From Candidatus Bathyarchaeia archaeon (GTDB lineage: Archaea > Thermoproteota > Bathyarchaeia > Bathyarchaeales > DTEX01): a DNA stretch of 64,000 bases. The stretch covers positions 1,698 to 65,697 of the forward strand of contig JAWAZE010000003.1 of NCBI GenBank assembly GCA_038817885.1. Reading direction: 5' to 3'. Within the stretch, counting starts at the first letter, position 1. Each line of letters starts with the position of its first letter. Shown here piece by piece: positions 924 to 60,352 of the stretch. The position numbers were made by a program, and so were the translations under genes. Below the pieces are notes generated by a model, which did no database searches, was not told the DNA's origin, and was given only the letters and a program-made list of their open reading frames with translations.

Positions 924-1439
924 TTGGGTTTCATCCACTTATATACTGGTGATGGTGAGGGCAAATCTATCACCGCCTTTGGTCTAGCCTTGAGAGCTGT
1001 CGGGCATGGCTATAAGGTTATAATAGTTCAGTTCATGAAGGGTAGAAAGGATGTTGGCGAGTATAAGATCCGGGGAAGGCTTGCGCCAAACTATGAGATC
1101 CGCCAATTTGGACGCAAGGAATTTATTGATTTAGAGAGCCCAAGCCTAATCGACTATGTATTGGCAAGGAGGGCCCTTAATTTCGCTAAAAAGGCGCTTA
1201 GTCGGAAGCCCCGTCTCCTAATCCTAGATGAGATAAACCTAGCCGTCTCAGTTGGGTTAGTTCAGCTTAGCGACGTCCTCGACCTTTTAAGTAATATACC
1301 TGAATCGACAACAGTTGTGTTGACTGGTAGGAATGCGCCTAAGGAGCTTATTGAGCTGGCTGACCTCGTCACCGAGATGCGTGAGATAAAGCATCCTTGG
1401 AGGAGTGGGGTTCAGGCTAGGAGGGGGATAGAATATTGA
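924..1439 (+). CDS. cobO: cob(I)yrinic acid a,c-diamide / cob(I)alamin adenosyltransferase (CobA/CobO/BtuR family)
   Basis: N-terminal IHLYTGDGEGKS P-loop-like motif. VIIVQFMKG and LLILDEINLA motifs and the ~170 aa size are typical of CobO/BtuR. TTG start. Confidence 0.8.
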   Translation: MGFIHLYTGDGEGKSITAFGLALRAVGHGYKVIIVQFMKGRKDVGEYKIRGRLAPNYEIRQFGRKEFIDLESPSLIDYVLARRALNFAKKALSRKPRLLILDEINLAVSVGLVQLSDVLDLLSNIPESTTVVLTGRNAPKELIELADLVTEMREIKHPWRSGVQARRGIEY

Positions 1440-1627
1440 GAGTTGGAGGCCTTTAGCGCCCCCTTTAAGATTCCGTCCCCTCCCTACCCTCGCAGTATAC
1501 AAGGTAGAGGAATACCAATATAAATGATATTAGAATTAGCACCTGCAAAATTGTTTTAAATGTATTAAAGAATTCTGCGCTCATTTTAGTTAATCCTCCA
1601 AGATTCTATTTAGAGCGTATGGACTAT

Positions 1628-2041
1628 TTAAGGCATTACCGTCTTCCACTCCCTCATCAGGAAGTCATAGAGTTCATCGCTCTCCTCGATGACGTCATAT
1701 TTCCCCAGAGACTCGGCGATCTTCTGCCCAATTAGATGGTAGCATAGGTAGGCTTTTTGGCTCATAACGTGAAAGTAGAAGTCGTTGCATGTGCAGAATA
1801 CGGCGTCGGGCATAACTAGGTAGTCCCTCCTCTTTCCGACAACTATCCAAACAACCCTCCCACTGGGCTTAAAAATATACTTCTTGATCCTACCATCCTT
1901 AATAGCCCTCCAAGCCTTTATGAAGCGGGATCCGAAGGCCGCGCTCAATTTATTAAAATTTTCATCACTAATCTTTCCAGACCTCTTAATATCCTCACAG
2001 ATGCTCTCAAGAAATTCGCTCTCGAATTTTTCCCTCTCCAT
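1628..2041 (-). CDS. SWIM-type zinc-finger protein
   Basis: CTCNDF...CYH (CxCx(n)CxH) SWIM signature near the C-terminus. Start trimmed to ATG at 2041 (MEREKF...); the ORF-track start at 2107 is an upstream alternative. Confidence 0.6.
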   Translation of the reverse strand: MEREKFESEFLESICEDIKRSGKISDENFNKLSAAFGSRFIKAWRAIKDGRIKKYIFKPSGRVVWIVVGKRRDYLVMPDAVFCTCNDFYFHVMSQKAYLCYHLIGQKIAESLGKYDVIEESDELYDFLMREWKTVMP

Positions 2042-11158: not shown

Positions 11159-13147
<1,989 letters not shown>

Positions 13148-13304
13148 CACTTTATTTTTCCACTTAAAAAATAATTTAAAAATATATTCTTTGCGGTAGC
13201 CGTATGCGAAGTTTCTCCGACAACAGATAAGTTTAAATTTATTACTCGGTTTTCTCTGAATTTTATAATACTGAAACGTAGGAAACGTTGGCAGAATATT
13301 AGGT

Positions 13305-13955
13305 GTGATAGCTTTGGATGAGAGGTCGGATGAGGTAAGCGGAATCAGCGAGTGGGTTCCGCGTACAAAGCTTGGTAGAATGGTACTTGAGGGTAAAATA
13401 TCATCTTTAGAGGAGGTATTCGCCAATGGAATGAAGATAAGTGAGCCGGAAATAGTAGATACGCTTGTACCAAACCTTGAGGAGGAAGTTTTACACATAA
13501 GCATCGTCCAGAGACAAACTGACGCGGGTGAGAGGTCAAGATTTAAGGCCATAGTTGCTATTGGAAATAAGGACGGCTATCTCGGCATCGGCGCTGGCAA
13601 GGCCACTCAGGTGCGCACGGCAATAGAGAAGGCTGCCAGGGATGCGCGTCTAAACATCACGGTCATTCGGAGAGGGTGTGGAAGCTGGGAGTGCGGGTGT
13701 GGGCAACCGCATTCAATACCCTTCGAGGTGACTGGGAAGTGTGGTGCTGTTAAGGTCAAAATTTTACCAGGTCCACGTGGTTTAGGGCTGGTTGCTGGTG
13801 AAGTTGCTAAAGTTATTCTTAGGCTTGCGGGTGTAAAGGACTGCTGGACTAGAAGTTATGGTCCGACAAGAACGGTCCCATCATTCACGTACGCCATATT
13901 TGACGCCCTTAAGAAAACATATGAAATTATCACTCCGCTAGACTGGGCGAGGTAA
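13305..13955 (+). CDS. rps5: 30S ribosomal protein uS5
   Basis: WVPRTKLGR..., GIGAGKA and ILPGPRGLGLVAG motifs. Conserved position before uL30/uL15/secY. Confidence 0.95.
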   Translation: MIALDERSDEVSGISEWVPRTKLGRMVLEGKISSLEEVFANGMKISEPEIVDTLVPNLEEEVLHISIVQRQTDAGERSRFKAIVAIGNKDGYLGIGAGKATQVRTAIEKAARDARLNITVIRRGCGSWECGCGQPHSIPFEVTGKCGAVKVKILPGPRGLGLVAGEVAKVILRLAGVKDCWTRSYGPTRTVPSFTYAIFDALKKTYEIITPLDWAR

Positions 13956-36415: not shown

Positions 36416-36505
36416 GAAGATATCCCTACTCCACATCACATTTATTAACAGTTTTATTTCTAACCTTAATATTATTTTAAATTAAATTTGATTTGGAGGG
36501 AATCT

Positions 36506-38215
36506 ATGGACTTACTCATAAAGGGTGGTTATGTCTACGACCCCTTAAATGGTGTTAACGGCGAGGTCATGGACATATGTGTTAGGGATGGAAAGATTAT
36601 TGAGAAGGTTAATGAGCGCAAAGCCTATGTGATCGATGCTTCTGGAATGATCGTCATGCCCGGCGGAATAGATATACATACTCATATAGCTGGCGCCGAG
36701 GTTAACTCGGGCAGGCTTCTCAGGCCCGAGGATCACGCCCGCGATGTTGAGCCTAGAACTCCGATAACTAGGTCTGGCGTAGGCTATTCTATTCCATCAA
36801 CGTTCACCACGGGTTACCGCTATGCTCGCATGGGTTATACGTTCCTCTGTAACCCATCGATGCCGCCGCTGGAGGCCAGGCATACCCATGAGGAGCTAGA
36901 TGATACGCCAATAGTGGATAAAGTGACCTACCCATTGCTCGGGGACTGGTGGTTCGTTCTAGAGCATTTAAGAGATAAGAAGATTAAGGAATGCGCCGAG
37001 CATGTTGCTTGGATGCTCATCGCCACGAAGGGCTATGCGATAAAAATAGTTAACCCGGGCGGTCTAGAGACATGGGGCTTTGGAAGAAACGTTAAGGGTT
37101 TAGATGACCCGGTACCGTACTTTAACGTAACCCCTAGAGAGATAATTCGCGGGCTATGCATCGTTAATAAGATCCTTAATCTTCCGCATACAATACACGT
37201 TCACACGAATAGGCTTGGCCAGCCGGGCAACTACGCCACAACCATCGAGACTATGGATTGCGTTAAGGATCTGGCTGCGGATGGTAAGCCCGCCATCCAC
37301 ATTACACATTGTCAGTTCAGCGCTTTTAGGGGCGACAACTGGGCGACGATGCGTTCTGGGGCTGAGGAGATCGCCAAGTATGTTAATGCGCATAGCCACG
37401 TCACTTTAGACATGGGACAAGTAGTATTTACGGATACTACTACGATGACGGCTGACGGCCCATGGCAGTACACGCTATATGAGTTAAGCGGGAACAAGTG
37501 GGTTAATCATGACGTCGAGACTGAGACGAGCTCCGGTATAGTGCCCTTCAGATATAGGCGCAAGAGCTACGTCCACGCGACGATGTGGTCCATAGGCTTA
37601 GAACTGGCACTTCTAATAGAGGATCCGTGGAAGATATACTTAACGACAGACCACCCGAACGGCGGCCCCTTCACAGAGTACCCGAGGATAATATCTTGGC
37701 TTATGAGTAGGAAGGCTAGGGAGGAGACCCTCAAGAGGATAAATAAGAAGGCTAGGGCTAGATCCATCCTCCCGAGTATAGATAGGGAGTACACATTTTA
37801 TGAGATAGCGATAGTCACGCGGGCCGGGCAGGCTAAGGTATTAGGCTTTGAGTCGATTAGTAAGGGTCATCTCGGCGTCGGCGCGGACGCTGACATAGCC
37901 ATATATGAAGTCGATCCGAGGAAGGTTGACCCATCAAACGACTATAAGGCTGTTCAAAGAGCGTTCTCTAGGGCAGCCTATACAATTAAGGGTGGCGAGA
38001 TCGTTGTTAAGGGTGGTGAGATCGTCAGGGCTCCGGATGGGAAAACCTACTGGATAAACTTTGAGAGTTCATCCCAGATAGACCCGCTCTCAAGCGTATC
38101 CGCCAGCCTGAAAAAGAAGTTCAGGGAGTACTGGACTGTTGAACTTGAAAACTATTTTATACCGGAAAGATATCTCAAGCATTCGGTACCAATAAGTATT
38201 AAAGCGGGGGTATAG
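36506..38215 (+). CDS. fwdA: formylmethanofuran dehydrogenase subunit A (amidohydrolase)
   Basis: Full-length resemblance to FwdA: IKGGYVYDPLNGV, PGGIDIHTHIAG, MTADGPW, GHLGVGADADIA. ATG 36506 is preceded by GGAGGG. Confidence 0.9.
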   Translation: MDLLIKGGYVYDPLNGVNGEVMDICVRDGKIIEKVNERKAYVIDASGMIVMPGGIDIHTHIAGAEVNSGRLLRPEDHARDVEPRTPITRSGVGYSIPSTFTTGYRYARMGYTFLCNPSMPPLEARHTHEELDDTPIVDKVTYPLLGDWWFVLEHLRDKKIKECAEHVAWMLIATKGYAIKIVNPGGLETWGFGRNVKGLDDPVPYFNVTPREIIRGLCIVNKILNLPHTIHVHTNRLGQPGNYATTIETMDCVKDLAADGKPAIHITHCQFSAFRGDNWATMRSGAEEIAKYVNAHSHVTLDMGQVVFTDTTTMTADGPWQYTLYELSGNKWVNHDVETETSSGIVPFRYRRKSYVHATMWSIGLELALLIEDPWKIYLTTDHPNGGPFTEYPRIISWLMSRKAREETLKRINKKARARSILPSIDREYTFYEIAIVTRAGQAKVLGFESISKGHLGVGADADIAIYEVDPRKVDPSNDYKAVQRAFSRAAYTIKGGEIVVKGGEIVRAPDGKTYWINFESSSQIDPLSSVSASLKKKFREYWTVELENYFIPERYLKHSVPISIKAGV

Positions 38216-38218
38216 GCC

Positions 38219-39040
38219 ATCCTGATCCACATAACCCCAAAATACGAATTTAACGTTCCAGTTTATGCGGGGTGCATTTCACCAGACGTCTTAAGCGGAA
38301 AGAGTCTTAAAGAAATACTGGGGCTGAGGGTTTTCGAGGGAAATAAAAACCGCCCTCTCGGAGACCTATTTAACGTTAGCCTCGAGGGGAAGGATGATGA
38401 GACGGAAGTCACACTGCGCCTCTCAGGGAATTTCATAAAGGTTAGGAGGATTGGATCCAGCATGACGAAGGGCAAGATCATTGTGGATGGCGACGTTGGG
38501 ATGCACGTTGGGGAGGGGATGAGTGGGGGAGAAATAATTGTTAACGGCTACGCTGATTCGTGGGCCGGAGGGGGCATGAAGGGGGGTAAGATAGAGGTTA
38601 AGGGCTCAGCCGGAGACTATATTGGGGCTCCCTACCGTGGAATTAAAGAGGGGATGAGGGGCGGGAGAATAATTATACATGGGGATGCTGGTAGGGAGGT
38701 TGGGGCCTCCATGAGGGGAGGCTTAATCAGGATATACGGCTCAGTTAAGCACTTCGTTGGGATAAACATGGCTGATGGTACAATAGTCGTTCACGGAGAC
38801 TGTGCGGGTAAGACTGGTGGCGGGATGAGGGGCGGGAGAATAATCATTTGCGGCTATATCCCATCTGTTCTGCCAACATTCACATTCGAGGATATAAGGC
38901 CGAGCGTGAATATAGATGGCGAGAAGATTAGCGGACCATTCTATCGTTTTGTGGGAGATATAGCTGATAGGGGCGAGGGGAGACTATTCTTATCCAAGGA
39001 GAAGAACCCGCATCTATCCTTCTATGAGAAATATTTGTAG
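38219..39040 (+). CDS. fwdC: formylmethanofuran dehydrogenase subunit C (start codon unresolved; the first canonical start is 38462)
   Basis: GxxGG beta-helix repeats lie downstream of 38462. The conserved FwdC N-terminal domain (ITPKYEFNVPVYAGCISPDVLSGKSLKEI...GNFIKVRRIG) is encoded at 38216-38461, in frame and with no ATG/GTG/TTG. See findings. Confidence 0.8.
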   Translation: MLIHITPKYEFNVPVYAGCISPDVLSGKSLKEILGLRVFEGNKNRPLGDLFNVSLEGKDDETEVTLRLSGNFIKVRRIGSSMTKGKIIVDGDVGMHVGEGMSGGEIIVNGYADSWAGGGMKGGKIEVKGSAGDYIGAPYRGIKEGMRGGRIIIHGDAGREVGASMRGGLIRIYGSVKHFVGINMADGTIVVHGDCAGKTGGGMRGGRIIICGYIPSVLPTFTFEDIRPSVNIDGEKISGPFYRFVGDIADRGEGRLFLSKEKNPHLSFYEKYL

Positions 39041-39049
39041 GAGGTAGTG

Positions 39050-40012
39050 ATGCCCCTAAGCATAAATAAGGAAGCTGCAAAGATCGCTATGGAGATCTGC
39101 AGCTCTCCGGAAAAATATAATGTCATCGTGGAGAGGAGTTCTTTAGGGGCGCATATAATTGATGCGGGAATAGAGGCTAAGGGAGGACTCCTTGTAGGTA
39201 AACTTATAGTAGAAATATGTCTAGGTGGGCTTGGCGGAGCAAACATCTCCATAATGCGCTTAGGGGATTTAGAGATACCATCAATAAATGTTTACACAGA
39301 CCAGCCGGCAATCTCAACGCTAGCCTCACAGATGGCTGGGTGGAGGATTAGGGTCGGCGATTATGTGGCGATGGGCTCCGGCCCAGCAAGAGCATTAGCC
39401 CAAAAACCAAAGAGCATTTATGAGAGAATAGGGTATAGAGATGAGGCTGATGAGGCTGTAATAGTTTTAGAGACTTCTAAGAAGCCCCCGGATGAGGTTA
39501 TTAGGAGTATTGCCGATTCCTGCCGCATATCCCCGGAAAGACTCTACATAATAGTCTCCCCTACAACATCCATAGCCTGCCTAACGCAGATTTCTGGGAG
39601 GATTGTTGAGGTTGGGGTTTATAGGCTGGTTGAGATGGGCTTTGATCCCAACGCTATAATCTATGCGCTTGGGGAGGCCCCTATCCCCCCACCACACCCC
39701 GATGAGATCGAGTCTATGGGCAGATCTAATGATGTAATATTGTACTGTGGCTCGGTGCACGTTATCGTAGATCACCATGATGACAGGTACCTGGAAAAGA
39801 TCGCCGGGGAGGCCGTCTCAATGGCCTCAAAGGATTATGGGAGACCTTTCGCAGAGATCTTCAGGGGTGTTGGCGGAGACTTCTATAAGATTGATCCGAA
39901 GGTGTTCGCCCCAGCCAAGATTACAATTATGAACAAGAGGACTGGAAAAATATTTTCTTGTGGAAAAATAAACACTGAAATATTGTTAAAATCTATGGGT
40001 TGCATTGGCTAG
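39050..40012 (+). CDS. mch: methenyltetrahydromethanopterin cyclohydrolase
   Basis: Motifs IDAGIEAKGG, NVYTDQPAISTLASQMAGWRI, AMGSGPARALA, SKDYGRPFAEIF and DFYKIDPKVFAPA match Mch along the whole length. GGAGGT lies upstream. Confidence 0.9.
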   Translation: MPLSINKEAAKIAMEICSSPEKYNVIVERSSLGAHIIDAGIEAKGGLLVGKLIVEICLGGLGGANISIMRLGDLEIPSINVYTDQPAISTLASQMAGWRIRVGDYVAMGSGPARALAQKPKSIYERIGYRDEADEAVIVLETSKKPPDEVIRSIADSCRISPERLYIIVSPTTSIACLTQISGRIVEVGVYRLVEMGFDPNAIIYALGEAPIPPPHPDEIESMGRSNDVILYCGSVHVIVDHHDDRYLEKIAGEAVSMASKDYGRPFAEIFRGVGGDFYKIDPKVFAPAKITIMNKRTGKIFSCGKINTEILLKSMGCIG

Positions 40013-46464: not shown

Positions 46465-46497
46465 CAATAGGGGGTATGCGCGTCGCCACACAGCGAG

Positions 46498-46950
46498 ATT
46501 GATGAACTGGATTTCCAAATAATTAAATTATTACAGGAGGATTCGCGGATCAGCTATAATAAGTTGGCTAGTAGACTTGGGGTATCCGTCGGAACAATAT
46601 ATAATCGCATAAAAAATCTTGAGGGAAAAGGTGTCCTGAAGGGTTATACTGCGGTTGTTGATCCCGTGAAGGTGGGGTATGGAACAATTGCCATAGTGCT
46701 CATTCAGGCAGAGGGGGCGCATTTAGTTGAAGTAGAAAACGAGATAGCAAAGATTGGCAATGTTATTGCCGTTTATGATATAACTGGTGATTTCGATATT
46801 GCGGTGATAGCCAGGTTTAGAGATAGATTCGAGTTGAACTCTTTTGTTAAAAGACTATTGTCGATGCCTTATGTAAAGCGCACGGTCACAAACGTCGTCT
46901 TAAACGTTGTAAAGGAGGACTTCAGGGTAAATATTTCAGATAACCTTTAG
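46498..46950 (+). CDS. Lrp/AsnC-family transcriptional regulator (start unresolved; the first canonical start 46564 would delete half of the HTH)
   Basis: The in-frame sequence from 46498 reads I-DELDFQIIKLLQEDSRISYNKLASRLGVSVGTIYNRI. This aligns residue for residue with the paralog at 33068 (MDQIDFQILRILKENSRIKY...). An RAM domain follows. Confidence 0.7.
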   Translation: MDELDFQIIKLLQEDSRISYNKLASRLGVSVGTIYNRIKNLEGKGVLKGYTAVVDPVKVGYGTIAIVLIQAEGAHLVEVENEIAKIGNVIAVYDITGDFDIAVIARFRDRFELNSFVKRLLSMPYVKRTVTNVVLNVVKEDFRVNISDNL

Positions 46951-58627: not shown

Positions 58628-58720
58628 AGTATTTTAATATTAATTCATTTAAATAACGCTTAAATTATCGGTGATCTAATACTTAGCTATGTTTTATTTG
58701 TGCGTGGGGGTTGATCGGGC

Positions 58721-60352
58721 ACGACTAAATATATTTTTGTTACCGGCGGGGTACTGAGCTCGGTGGGTAAGGGGGTTGTCACGTCCTCGGTGGGTAAAAT
58801 GCTTCAGTTCAGAGGATTTACTGTTACTGCAATAAAGATAGACCCGTATGTAAATGTGGATGCGGGGACGATGAATCCGTATGTTCACGGCGAAATATTT
58901 GTTACGGAAGATGGTGGTGAAACGGACCTTGATTTAGGGTGGTATGAAAGATTTCTAGACATTAATTTATCTAAGGAGAATAATATTACGACCGGGCAGA
59001 TCTATCAGACCGTAATTGATAAGGAGAGGAGGGGAGATTATCTTGGTAAATGCGTCCAAATAATACCTCACATAACCGACGAAATTAAGCGTAGGATACG
59101 CATGGTTGCCAAGAAATCTGGCGTTGATGTCGTCCTCACCGAATGCGGTGGAACTGTTGGGGATATAGAGGGGCTGCCATTCCTAGAAGCCATAAGGCAG
59201 ATGCGCCTAGAAGAGGGTTATGAAAACACGCTCTATATCCATGTAGCTTTAGTGCCGATATTAGATGTAACGTCGGAGATGAAGACTAAGCCGCTTCAGC
59301 ACAGCGTAAATGAGCTCCGCAGAATAGGTGTCCAGCCAGACATAATAGTATCTAGATGTACAAAAATGATTACGAAGGAAGCTCTTGAGAAGATCGCCCT
59401 ATTTGGGACAATACCTAAAGAGGCAGTCTTCTGCTCATATAACGTCCCAACAGTCTATGAGGTCCCCCTAATCCTCGATGGGCAGGGGATGGGAGACTAT
59501 ATATGTAAGCGCCTCGGCCTCACATCAAAACAAGTCAATAAGCATGAAATAGAGAGATGGAGGAACTTTGTTAACGCTTTAGAGAGCTGTAAATACACTA
59601 TAAAAGTGGCCCTCGTCGGCAAATATGCTGGTCTAGTAGATAGCTATGTCAGCATGAATGAGGCATTTAAGCACGCCGGCGCAGCCTGCAATACAAAGGT
59701 TATAATAGATTATATTGAGGCGGAGACCTTCGAGGAGGAGCCGGAAAAGATTACGATGCTTAAAAATTATGATGGAGTATTTGTTCCCTACGGATTCGGC
59801 CCGCGCGGCGCCCTCGGCAAGATAATGGCAATCCAATTCGCAAGGGAAAACAATATTCCCTTTTTAGGAGTCTGCTATGGATTCCAGCTCGCCGTTGTCG
59901 AGTTTGCAAGAAATGTCTGTGGACTAAAAGACGCAAATAGCACGGAGATCGATGAGAAGACCCCCCACCCAGTAGTCGATCTGATGCTGGAGCAGCACCA
60001 TATATCTTATAAGGGAGCCACCATGCGTCTGGGATCCCAAAAGATAATCATTAGGGAGGGGACGCTGGCCCATAGGTTATATGGCGCAAGAGAAATTTAT
60101 GAGAGGCATAGACATAGATATGAGGTGAATCCGGAATACGTAGAGATGTTGGAGAAGCATGGGCTCGTCTTCTCGGGAAGAAGCCCAGATGGGAGGCGGA
60201 TGGAGATCCTTGAGCTGCCAGATAAATTCTTCTTCGCATCACAATTTCACGGAGAGTTTAAGAGTAGACCTGGGAAGCCGAGCCCAGAATACTATGGCTT
60301 CGTTAAAGCCTGTCTCGACAGAAAGCTCGGTAAAGATAAACCAGAGTTTTAA
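58721..60352 (+). CDS. pyrG: CTP synthase (start codon unresolved; the first canonical start is GTG 58763)
   Basis: Full-length CTP synthase: KIDPYVNVDAGTMNP, GTVGDIE, GVCYGFQ, HRHRYEV. The conserved N-terminal strand T-KYIFVTGGVLSSVGKG is encoded from 58721, upstream of any ATG/GTG/TTG. See findings. Confidence 0.85.
   Translation, partial: TTKYIFVTGGVLSSVGKGVVTSSVGKMLQFRGFTVTAIKIDPYVNVDAGTMNPYVHGEIFVTEDGGETDLDLGWYERFLDINLSKENNITTGQIYQTVIDKERRGDYLGKCVQIIPHITDEIKRRIRMVAKKSGVDVVLTECGGTVGDIEGLPFLEAIRQMRLEEGYENTLYIHVALVPILDVTSEMKTKPLQHSVNELRRIGVQPDIIVSRCTKMITKEALEKIALFGTIPKEAVFCSYNVPTVYEVPLILDGQGMGDYICKRLGLTSKQVNKHEIERWRNFVNALESCKYTIKVALVGKYAGLVDSYVSMNEAFKHAGAACNTKVIIDYIEAETFEEEPEKITMLKNYDGVFVPYGFGPRGALGKIMAIQFARENNIPFLGVCYGFQLAVVEFARNVCGLKDANSTEIDEKTPHPVVDLMLEQHHISYKGATMRLGSQKIIIREGTLAHRLYGAREIYERHRHRYEVNPEYVEMLEKHGLVFSGRSPDGRRMEILELPDKFFFASQFHGEFKSRPGKPSPEYYGFVKACLDRKLGKDKPEF

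Follow-up and report, generated by a model that had tools for sequence, protein, structure and literature searches.

A near-cognate AUC codon as the probable translation start of fwdC in a hot-spring Bathyarchaeia genome

We analyzed a 64,000-nucleotide (nt) stretch of contig JAWAZE010000003.1 (hereafter the window; all positions refer to it) from the uncultured hot-spring genome of Candidatus Bathyarchaeia archaeon, focusing on the adjacent genes fwdA, which encodes subunit A of formylmethanofuran dehydrogenase, and fwdC. In the window, the codon at the position of the FwdC initiator methionine is ATC. We consider it likely, with a probability of roughly three in four (0.74), that translation of fwdC initiates at this AUC codon, at position 38219, which would yield a full-length protein of ~273 residues. 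Judging from the comparison with related genomes, this near-cognate codon seems to be a genuine non-standard start that was inherited, and not the result of a sequencing error, readthrough of the fwdA stop codon or the death of the gene.

All features described here lie on the forward strand unless indicated otherwise. The fwdA gene (36506..38215) starts at ATG 36506, and ATG is also found at the aligned start in ~20 relatives. Its product matches the TIGR03121 profile with 823 bits, profile position 2 falling on residue 9 of the open reading frame (ORF) that opens at TTG 36488. The C-terminus of FwdA reads ...IKAGV and is followed by TAG 38213-38215, an ordinary terminator. Past this stop codon, the same frame reads GCC ATC CTG ATC CAC ATA ACC CCA AAA... 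and remains open for 274 codons, up to TAG 39038-39040. The GCC triplet (38216..38218) appears to be a 3-nt non-coding spacer, ATC (38219..38221) is the proposed initiation codon, and the fwdC coding sequence (38219..39040; TIGR03122, Pfam GXGXG) would comprise 273 codons and a TAG stop. The first in-frame ATG, GTG or TTG after the fwdA stop is ATG 38462, codon 83 of the open frame and 81 codons 3' of ATC 38219. The first-pass annotation of this DNA had placed the Shine-Dalgarno-like motif GGGGGT at 38206-38211, the stop at TAG 38213-38215, the near-cognate candidates at ATC 38219, CTG 38222, ATC 38225 and ATA 38231, and the first canonical codon at ATG 38462; all these coordinates are right, and the sequence indeed contains no ATG, GTG or TTG among the 82 codons between the TAG and ATG 38462.

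Of the ~60 ORFs in the window, fwdC shows by far the longest gap from the preceding stop to a canonical start, 82 codons, followed by gaps of 31 and 28 codons. We considered the run of 82 codons free of ATG, GTG and TTG as an anomaly in its own right and rejected this notion: these codons make up 4.3% of the coding codons of the window, which gives such a run a probability of ~0.03, and internal runs of 80-169 codons without any of the three are found inside many genes of the window. The anomaly at fwdC is a single codon, the one at the start position, not the length of the run.

The assignment of the open frame to FwdC relies on an equivalog score above the cut-off, full-length coverage, the presence of the GXGXG domain and the adjoining fwdA. 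The TIGR03122 equivalog profile is matched with 261 bits against a cut-off of 130.65, and profile positions 1-259 of 260 correspond to residues 4-258 of the frame opening at 38216. The GXGXG beta-helix is recognized by PF01493 with 38.3 bits (cut-off 32.5), and the solved structure of FwdC (5t5i_C) aligns with the window protein over residues 5-260, residue 5 on residue 5, with E = 4.6e-62. As proposed in the first-pass annotation, the frame after the TAG includes the N-terminal domain of FwdC (38219..38461); position 1 of the profile falls on residue 4. A protein starting at ATG 38462 would cover only profile positions 78-259, and the entire N-terminal domain would be lost, again as proposed.

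To compare the start region across relatives, we collected 80 fwdA-fwdC junctions from Bathyarchaeia and aligned each of them to the window; in a neighbor-joining tree, the FwdC clade that includes the window consists of 28 tips. In 20 of these 28 species, a non-canonical codon stands at the aligned position of the canonical initiator methionine, namely, ATC in 11, ATT in 5, ATA in 2, CTG in 1 and GTC in 1. In 14 of the 20, no ATG, GTG or TTG occurs within the next 9-83 codons. In 13 species other than that of the window, a canonical codon is first reached after 9 to 83 codons, with +83 in locus L021, +66 in L016 and +29 to +33 in six others. The start position always differs from AUG by no more than one mismatch, except in L027, where GTC is followed by an ATG three codons downstream, whereas the codon between the fwdA stop and the start position varies freely (GCC, ACC, GAC, GAA, AAA, AAG, ACA). 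The alignment of ATC 38219 with the methionine of canonical FwdC is readily seen at the N-terminus (MIF.ITPK vs ILIHITPK). Three nested members of the clade, L014, L023 and L024, carry ATG at exactly the start position, and the sister species L014 and L015 have ATG and CTG, respectively, in an otherwise identical context. Outside these groups, in the more distant loci of Bathyarchaeia, ATG, GTG or TTG is always found at the start position or one codon from it, and in most of them the start overlaps or abuts the fwdA stop (TAATG, TAAATG, TGATG). The lack of a canonical start is conserved in the 20 species, and TAG as the fwdA stop is not. By its location at the methionine position of orthologs, the lack of a canonical alternative and the conservation across species together with a ribosome-binding site, fwdC would belong with genes that possess conserved near-cognate (non-NTG) starts.

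The ribosome-binding site in question is the putative Shine-Dalgarno (SD) sequence GGGGGT (38206..38211), which is located inside the last codons of fwdA and can pair with the archaeal anti-SD CCUCC with one G:U pair. A GG[AG]GG core is present in every member of the clade with a near-cognate start, and in 18 of the 20 species, 7-9 nt separate this core from the near-cognate codon. In the window, the core is 8 nt away from ATC 38219, and the full GGGGGT ends 7 nt before it; the SD spacing of canonical genes in the window, 5-10 nt, belongs to the same class. The public gene calls in relatives place the start elsewhere: the calls of JGI start fwdC at a TTG or GTG that abuts the SD core, and in L012 and L017, where the chosen TTG or GTG is only 1 nt from the core, ATT is better placed. 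In two of the species with ATG at the fwdC start, L023 and L024, GGAGTG.. is found instead of the strong GG[AG]GG core, and in the third, L014, GGTGG is found. The strength of the SD and that of the start codon may compensate each other, although the sample is small. A search for conserved RNA structure (hairpin or pseudoknot) with RNAalifold on 12 junctions predicted no pairs. Of the explanations offered in the first-pass annotation, the one favored by these comparative data is near-cognate initiation or reinitiation at ATC 38219, with GGGGGT 7 nt upstream.

The start region is reproducible across public data. The locus L088 (GCA_038846195.1) is identical to the window sequence over 5,822 nt, and at least six NCBI accessions of metagenome-assembled genomes (MAGs) contain exactly the same fwdC protein; the closest public loci come from hot-spring MAGs. 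Gene callers handle this protein inconsistently. Four NCBI records of the identical fwdC start at ATC 38219 (273 amino acids, MLIHITPK..., for example, MEM2168774), so that the NCBI pipeline already annotates some starts of this kind, and two start at ATA 38231 (269 amino acids, MTPKYEF...; MEM1586122 and MEM2559778). A contig look-up for the 269-amino-acid variant returned no match.

Selection on the N-terminal domain bears on the possibility that fwdC is decaying or yields nothing but a truncated beta-helix protein translated from ATG 38462. Over codons 2-82, the ratio of non-synonymous to synonymous substitution rates (dN/dS) is 0.11-0.21 in comparison with relatives that are 81% identical, and because of these low values, the domain, which aligns with residues 5-83 of 5t5i_C, is under purifying selection and, by implication, translated. 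In favor of the truncated product, ATG 38462 is the first canonical start codon and is preceded, at a distance of 12 nt, by GGAGG. However, in addition to the low dN/dS, the reading frame is intact in ~20 species, and both components of the apparent internal start are explained by the protein: ATG 38462 (38462..38464) encodes Met-83, which is conserved in all homologs including 5t5i_C (..RIGxxMTxG..), and GGAGG encodes the conserved Arg-Arg of KVRRIG. We rejected the internal start on the grounds of the dN/dS and the conservation of Met-83 as a protein residue, and a pseudogene or a truncated product is unlikely, with only a very small chance of being correct.

An error in the sequence or assembly, with ATG misread as ATC, is the least probable of the explanations, together with its biological counterpart, editing of the mRNA back to AUG. 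Only one base separates ATC from ATG, and ACG-to-AUG RNA editing is known to occur in plant organelles. Nevertheless, the independent assemblies carry the identical sequence, and the near-cognate state is inherited through the clade with ATC, ATT, ATA and CTG variants; no single type of editing could restore AUG both from C, U and A in the third position and from C in the first. Because the assemblies are identical and the near-cognate codon is kept across ~20 species, the base-call error suggested by the first-pass annotation can be dismissed. Its other suggestion, that the TAG is read through, by means of pyrrolysine or a suppressor tRNA, to produce a FwdA-FwdC fusion of ~850 residues, appears highly improbable as well. 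The two ORFs of the window do share a frame, with only the TAG and one codon between them, as in pyrrolysine (UAG) recoding in methanogens and some Bathyarchaeota, where an in-frame TAG likewise separates two conserved protein segments, and some Bathyarchaeota carry the pyrrolysine machinery, including PylRS (PMC9630628). Unlike in recoded genes, however, the stop is not conserved as TAG, being TAG, TAA or TGA among the 20 near-cognate species, and the frame is not conserved either: fwdA and fwdC are out of frame in L017 (2-nt spacer), L021 (4 nt), L029 (14 nt) and L012 (overlap). Readthrough is excluded because the stops of the relatives vary and these four gene pairs are out of frame. The description of fwdA and fwdC as one continuous frame broken only by TAG thus holds for the window, where it is incidental, and fails in the relatives. 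Furthermore, TAG is not avoided in the window, where it terminates 19 of the ~60 ORFs, including fwdC and mch, and none of the best 120 of 1,870 FwdC homologs is longer than 298 amino acids, with no fusion among these 120. No tRNA-Pyl was found in the window, tRNA-Gln being the only tRNA gene detected there, and genome-wide reassignment of TAG, considered separately, was rejected given the frequent use of TAG as a terminator in the window and the detection of tRNA-Gln only. Finally, initiation might occur at a different near-cognate codon, CTG 38222, ATC 38225 or ATA 38231, which we deem unlikely, with a chance of about one in eight. The disagreement between the NCBI records points in this direction, ATA 38231 is retained in the six closest genomes, and TGATCC (38223-38228) could pair with the anti-SD in a register that fits ATA 38231. 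Yet, even the closest relatives do not retain TGATCC, the codon at 38231 is ATT, CTT, GTT, GTC or TTG in other members of the clade, as expected of an ordinary hydrophobic residue, the alternative start codons would lie 11-20 nt away from the conserved GGAGG core, and the canonical methionine of the homologs aligns with 38219.

Under the proposed mechanism of initiation at AUC 38219, fwdA and fwdC would be two separate genes on one mRNA. The strong SD GGGGGU in the last codons of fwdA would hold the small ribosomal subunit in register, and the initiator Met-tRNA would read AUC with a third-position mismatch, such that methionine would be residue 1 of FwdC. Given the mere 3 nt between the fwdA stop and the AUC, we propose that fwdC is probably initiated in large part by ribosomes that have finished translating fwdA immediately before, that is, by termination-reinitiation. 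Such coupling would tie the output of FwdC to that of FwdA, both of which we take, as established knowledge, to be subunits of the FwdABCDFG complex (5t5i). The distance from the fwdA stop to the fwdC start is +3 nt in the window and 2-6 nt in 18 of the 20 species, with +14 nt in L029 and an overlap in L012. Termination-reinitiation has been demonstrated experimentally in Haloferax volcanii and Escherichia coli and falls steeply with the intergenic distance; the predictive range of the authors for coupled pairs is -8 to +10 nt, and such pairs are enriched for subunits of one complex (PMC10666635). The fwdA-fwdC pair of the window, with both genes on the same strand, a distance within this range and products that belong to one complex, has all these features.

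Several considerations weigh against initiation at AUC 38219. The evidence is comparative throughout, and every genome involved is an uncultured MAG. Because ATC, ATT and ATA are synonymous isoleucine codons, conservation cannot separate a start codon from an isoleucine codon at this position, and the assignment of the start rests on the homology to the canonical methionine, the SD spacing and the variability of the upstream codon. The codon that follows is mostly ATH or CTG as well, and a start one codon downstream is therefore possible. The anti-SD sequence CCUCC was assumed from general knowledge of archaea rather than taken from the 3' end of the 16S rRNA of this organism. The efficiency of AUU as a start in E. 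coli is ~0.3% of that of AUG (cited in PMC10666635). According to reviews, the start codons of archaea are limited to AUG, GUG and UUG (PMC7531240, PMC4705826), and our literature search for non-NTG starts in archaea or Bathyarchaeia did not turn up any report. With regard to coupling, the putative ACG start of pyrG in the same window, described below, cannot rely on it because a 94-nt intergenic gap precedes this gene; the share of reinitiation at fwdC is therefore uncertain.

Among the known systems, the proposed fwdC start resembles in mechanism the AUU starts of E. coli infC (IF3) and pcnB, in which a third-base mismatch similarly occupies the position of the AUG of orthologs, downstream of an SD, and is conserved across species. 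Unlike these genes, fwdC is archaeal and encodes a subunit of a metabolic enzyme rather than a fidelity factor, with no obvious autoregulatory logic, and its start codon drifts among AUC, AUU, AUA and CUG. In archaea, the fidelity of start codon selection depends on aIF1 and aIF2, not on IF3, and the eIF1/eIF2-type machinery of start selection is shared with eukaryotes. Eukaryotic and viral non-AUG initiation involves the same single-mismatch codons (AUH, CUG, ACG), but in the present case, there is neither scanning nor a Kozak context, and the positioning would be provided by SD pairing. The fwd/fmd operons of methanogens (FwdABCDFG, 5t5i) resemble the window locus in the N-terminal domain and GXGXG beta-helix of FwdC, the full-length homology and the adjacency of fwdA and fwdC, and differ from it in that the proposed start of the window fwdC is non-canonical, the genes are arranged in the order rpS7 - fwdA - fwdC - mch, and the window lacks fwdB and fwdD. 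The termination-reinitiation pairs of H. volcanii and E. coli (PMC6728339, PMC10666635) share with fwdA-fwdC the location on the same strand of two genes for subunits of one complex, a short intergenic distance (+3 nt for fwdA-fwdC) and a ribosome-binding site within the final 15 nt of the first gene; unlike fwdC, where the restart codon is not NTG, the characterized coupled pairs use ATG or GTG, typically, in ATGA or TGATG overlaps.

We screened 20 ORFs of the window, opened from the upstream stop, against NCBIfam for missing N-termini. Most of these have canonical starts (serS, lysM, aspartate kinase, dapA, purB, methionine adenosyltransferase, glnA, cobA, rpS3Ae), and only pyrG (CTP synthase) and one lrp paralog stood out. 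The start region of pyrG reads TGA TCG GGC ACG ACT AAA TAT ATT TTT GTT ACC GGC GGG (*SG-T-TKYIFVTGG), with position 2 of the NF003792 profile at residue 3 of the open frame, and ACG 58721 (58721..58723) stands where the universal M-TKYIFVTGG N-terminus requires ATG. With this ACG read as methionine, the N-terminus would be M-TKYIFVTGGVLSSVGK. The SD sequence GGGGGT is located at 58706-58711, and no canonical codon occurs before GTG 58763, which belongs to the SSxGKG loop (P-loop). The same ACG is found in L089, L092 and L093, that is, in the MAGs that also contributed the closest fwdC loci, whereas the sister L090 has ATG, and in ~70 other genomes of archaea and bacteria, the methionine position is occupied by ATG, GTG or TTG.

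The lrp paralog, an Lrp/AsnC regulator (46471..46950), is possibly the third non-canonical start in the window. Its helix-turn-helix (HTH) N-terminus extends upstream of the first canonical codon, TTG 46564, and the candidate starts are ATT 46498, which aligns with the methionine of the family and on which position 1 of the LysM profile falls (residue 10), and GTA 46474. At the position of ATT 46498, the relatives have ATG (L175), ATT (L169), GTT (L170) and TTA (L171), and in L171, 102 codons pass without a canonical one. The relatives also retain the peptide VCASPHSE, encoded in frame farther upstream, and L175 has GTG in place of GTA 46474. The ORFs that begin with the out-of-frame ATG 46476 and ATG 46502 are short.

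Further cases come from other Bathyarchaeia. In L029 (CAYGAE010000094.1, 780-3430), three consecutive genes lack a canonical start, namely, fwdA (CTG), fwdC (ATC) and mch (CTG), with GGAGG 8 nt upstream of the CTG at fwdA and 9 nt upstream at mch. In L033 and L070, ACG occupies the methionine position of fwdA, with GGAGG 7 nt upstream, and mch of L018 may start at CTG. Apart from such cases, the neighboring genes of close relatives have canonical starts, and in the window, apparent non-canonical starts are a minority, ~2-3 of 60 genes. Taken together, these cases raise the possibility that a mostly hot-spring lineage of Bathyarchaeia uses AUC, AUU, AUA, CUG and ACG as heritable starts of essential genes behind strong SDs. 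We put forward this generalization tentatively and would rate it at somewhat less than even odds; its basis is a handful of genes, that is, fwdC in ~20 species, pyrG with ACG in 4, fwdA and mch with CUG in L029, and fwdA with ACG in L033 and L070.

If such a lineage-wide repertoire exists, it would imply relaxed or differently tuned proofreading of starts (aIF1, aIF2 or the initiator tRNA), and the N-termini of proteins would be systematically mis-annotated in these Bathyarchaeia genomes. A conserved AUH or CUG start in a core gene of C1 metabolism would serve as natural evidence that archaeal initiation complexes can use third- and first-position mismatches productively, and the ACG and CUG cases in other genes point in the same direction. 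The fwdC AUC and the pyrG ACG, with GGAGG 7-10 nt upstream, offer concrete contexts for probing aIF1/aIF2 fidelity. On the practical side, a gene caller limited to ATG, GTG and TTG would cut FwdC to 192 amino acids, and the truncated protein could wrongly suggest a defective methyl branch of the Wood-Ljungdahl pathway in metabolic reconstructions of Bathyarchaeia.

Some additional features of the locus and its surroundings were noted. The fwdA gene follows the gene for ribosomal protein S7, and fwdC is followed by mch (methenyl-H4MPT cyclohydrolase; 39050..40012; Pfam MCH, 393 bits), which has a canonical start, GTG 39047 or ATG 39050. The genes fwdA, fwdC and mch share one reading frame that is split only by TAG 38213 and TAG 39038, mch itself ending at TAG 40010; this common frame is probably a coincidence. 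Between the window (36500-38500) and L001, its closest relative at the species level, nucleotide identity is 87-98% over fwdA and the first ~250 nt of fwdC and 64-83% on both sides of this tract, and the dS of fwdC is 0.12 for codons 2-82 compared with 0.90 for the rest of the gene, which suggests either a recombination tract or unusually constrained synonymous sites. In L171 (JZ_bin_23; 1225-1719, reverse strand), a gene with XRE-HTH and CBS domains reads ATG TGA CTG GAG..., with the conserved HTH located after the in-frame TGA and a stretch of 42 codons that lacks a canonical start; a pseudogene, recoding and one more non-canonical start are all conceivable. Finally, the ORF for acetyl-CoA synthetase in the window (11159-13576, reverse strand) consists of 805 codons, and the profile of this enzyme begins only at residue 166, so that the ORF contains either an N-terminal extension of ~165 residues or an unrecognized in-frame upstream gene.

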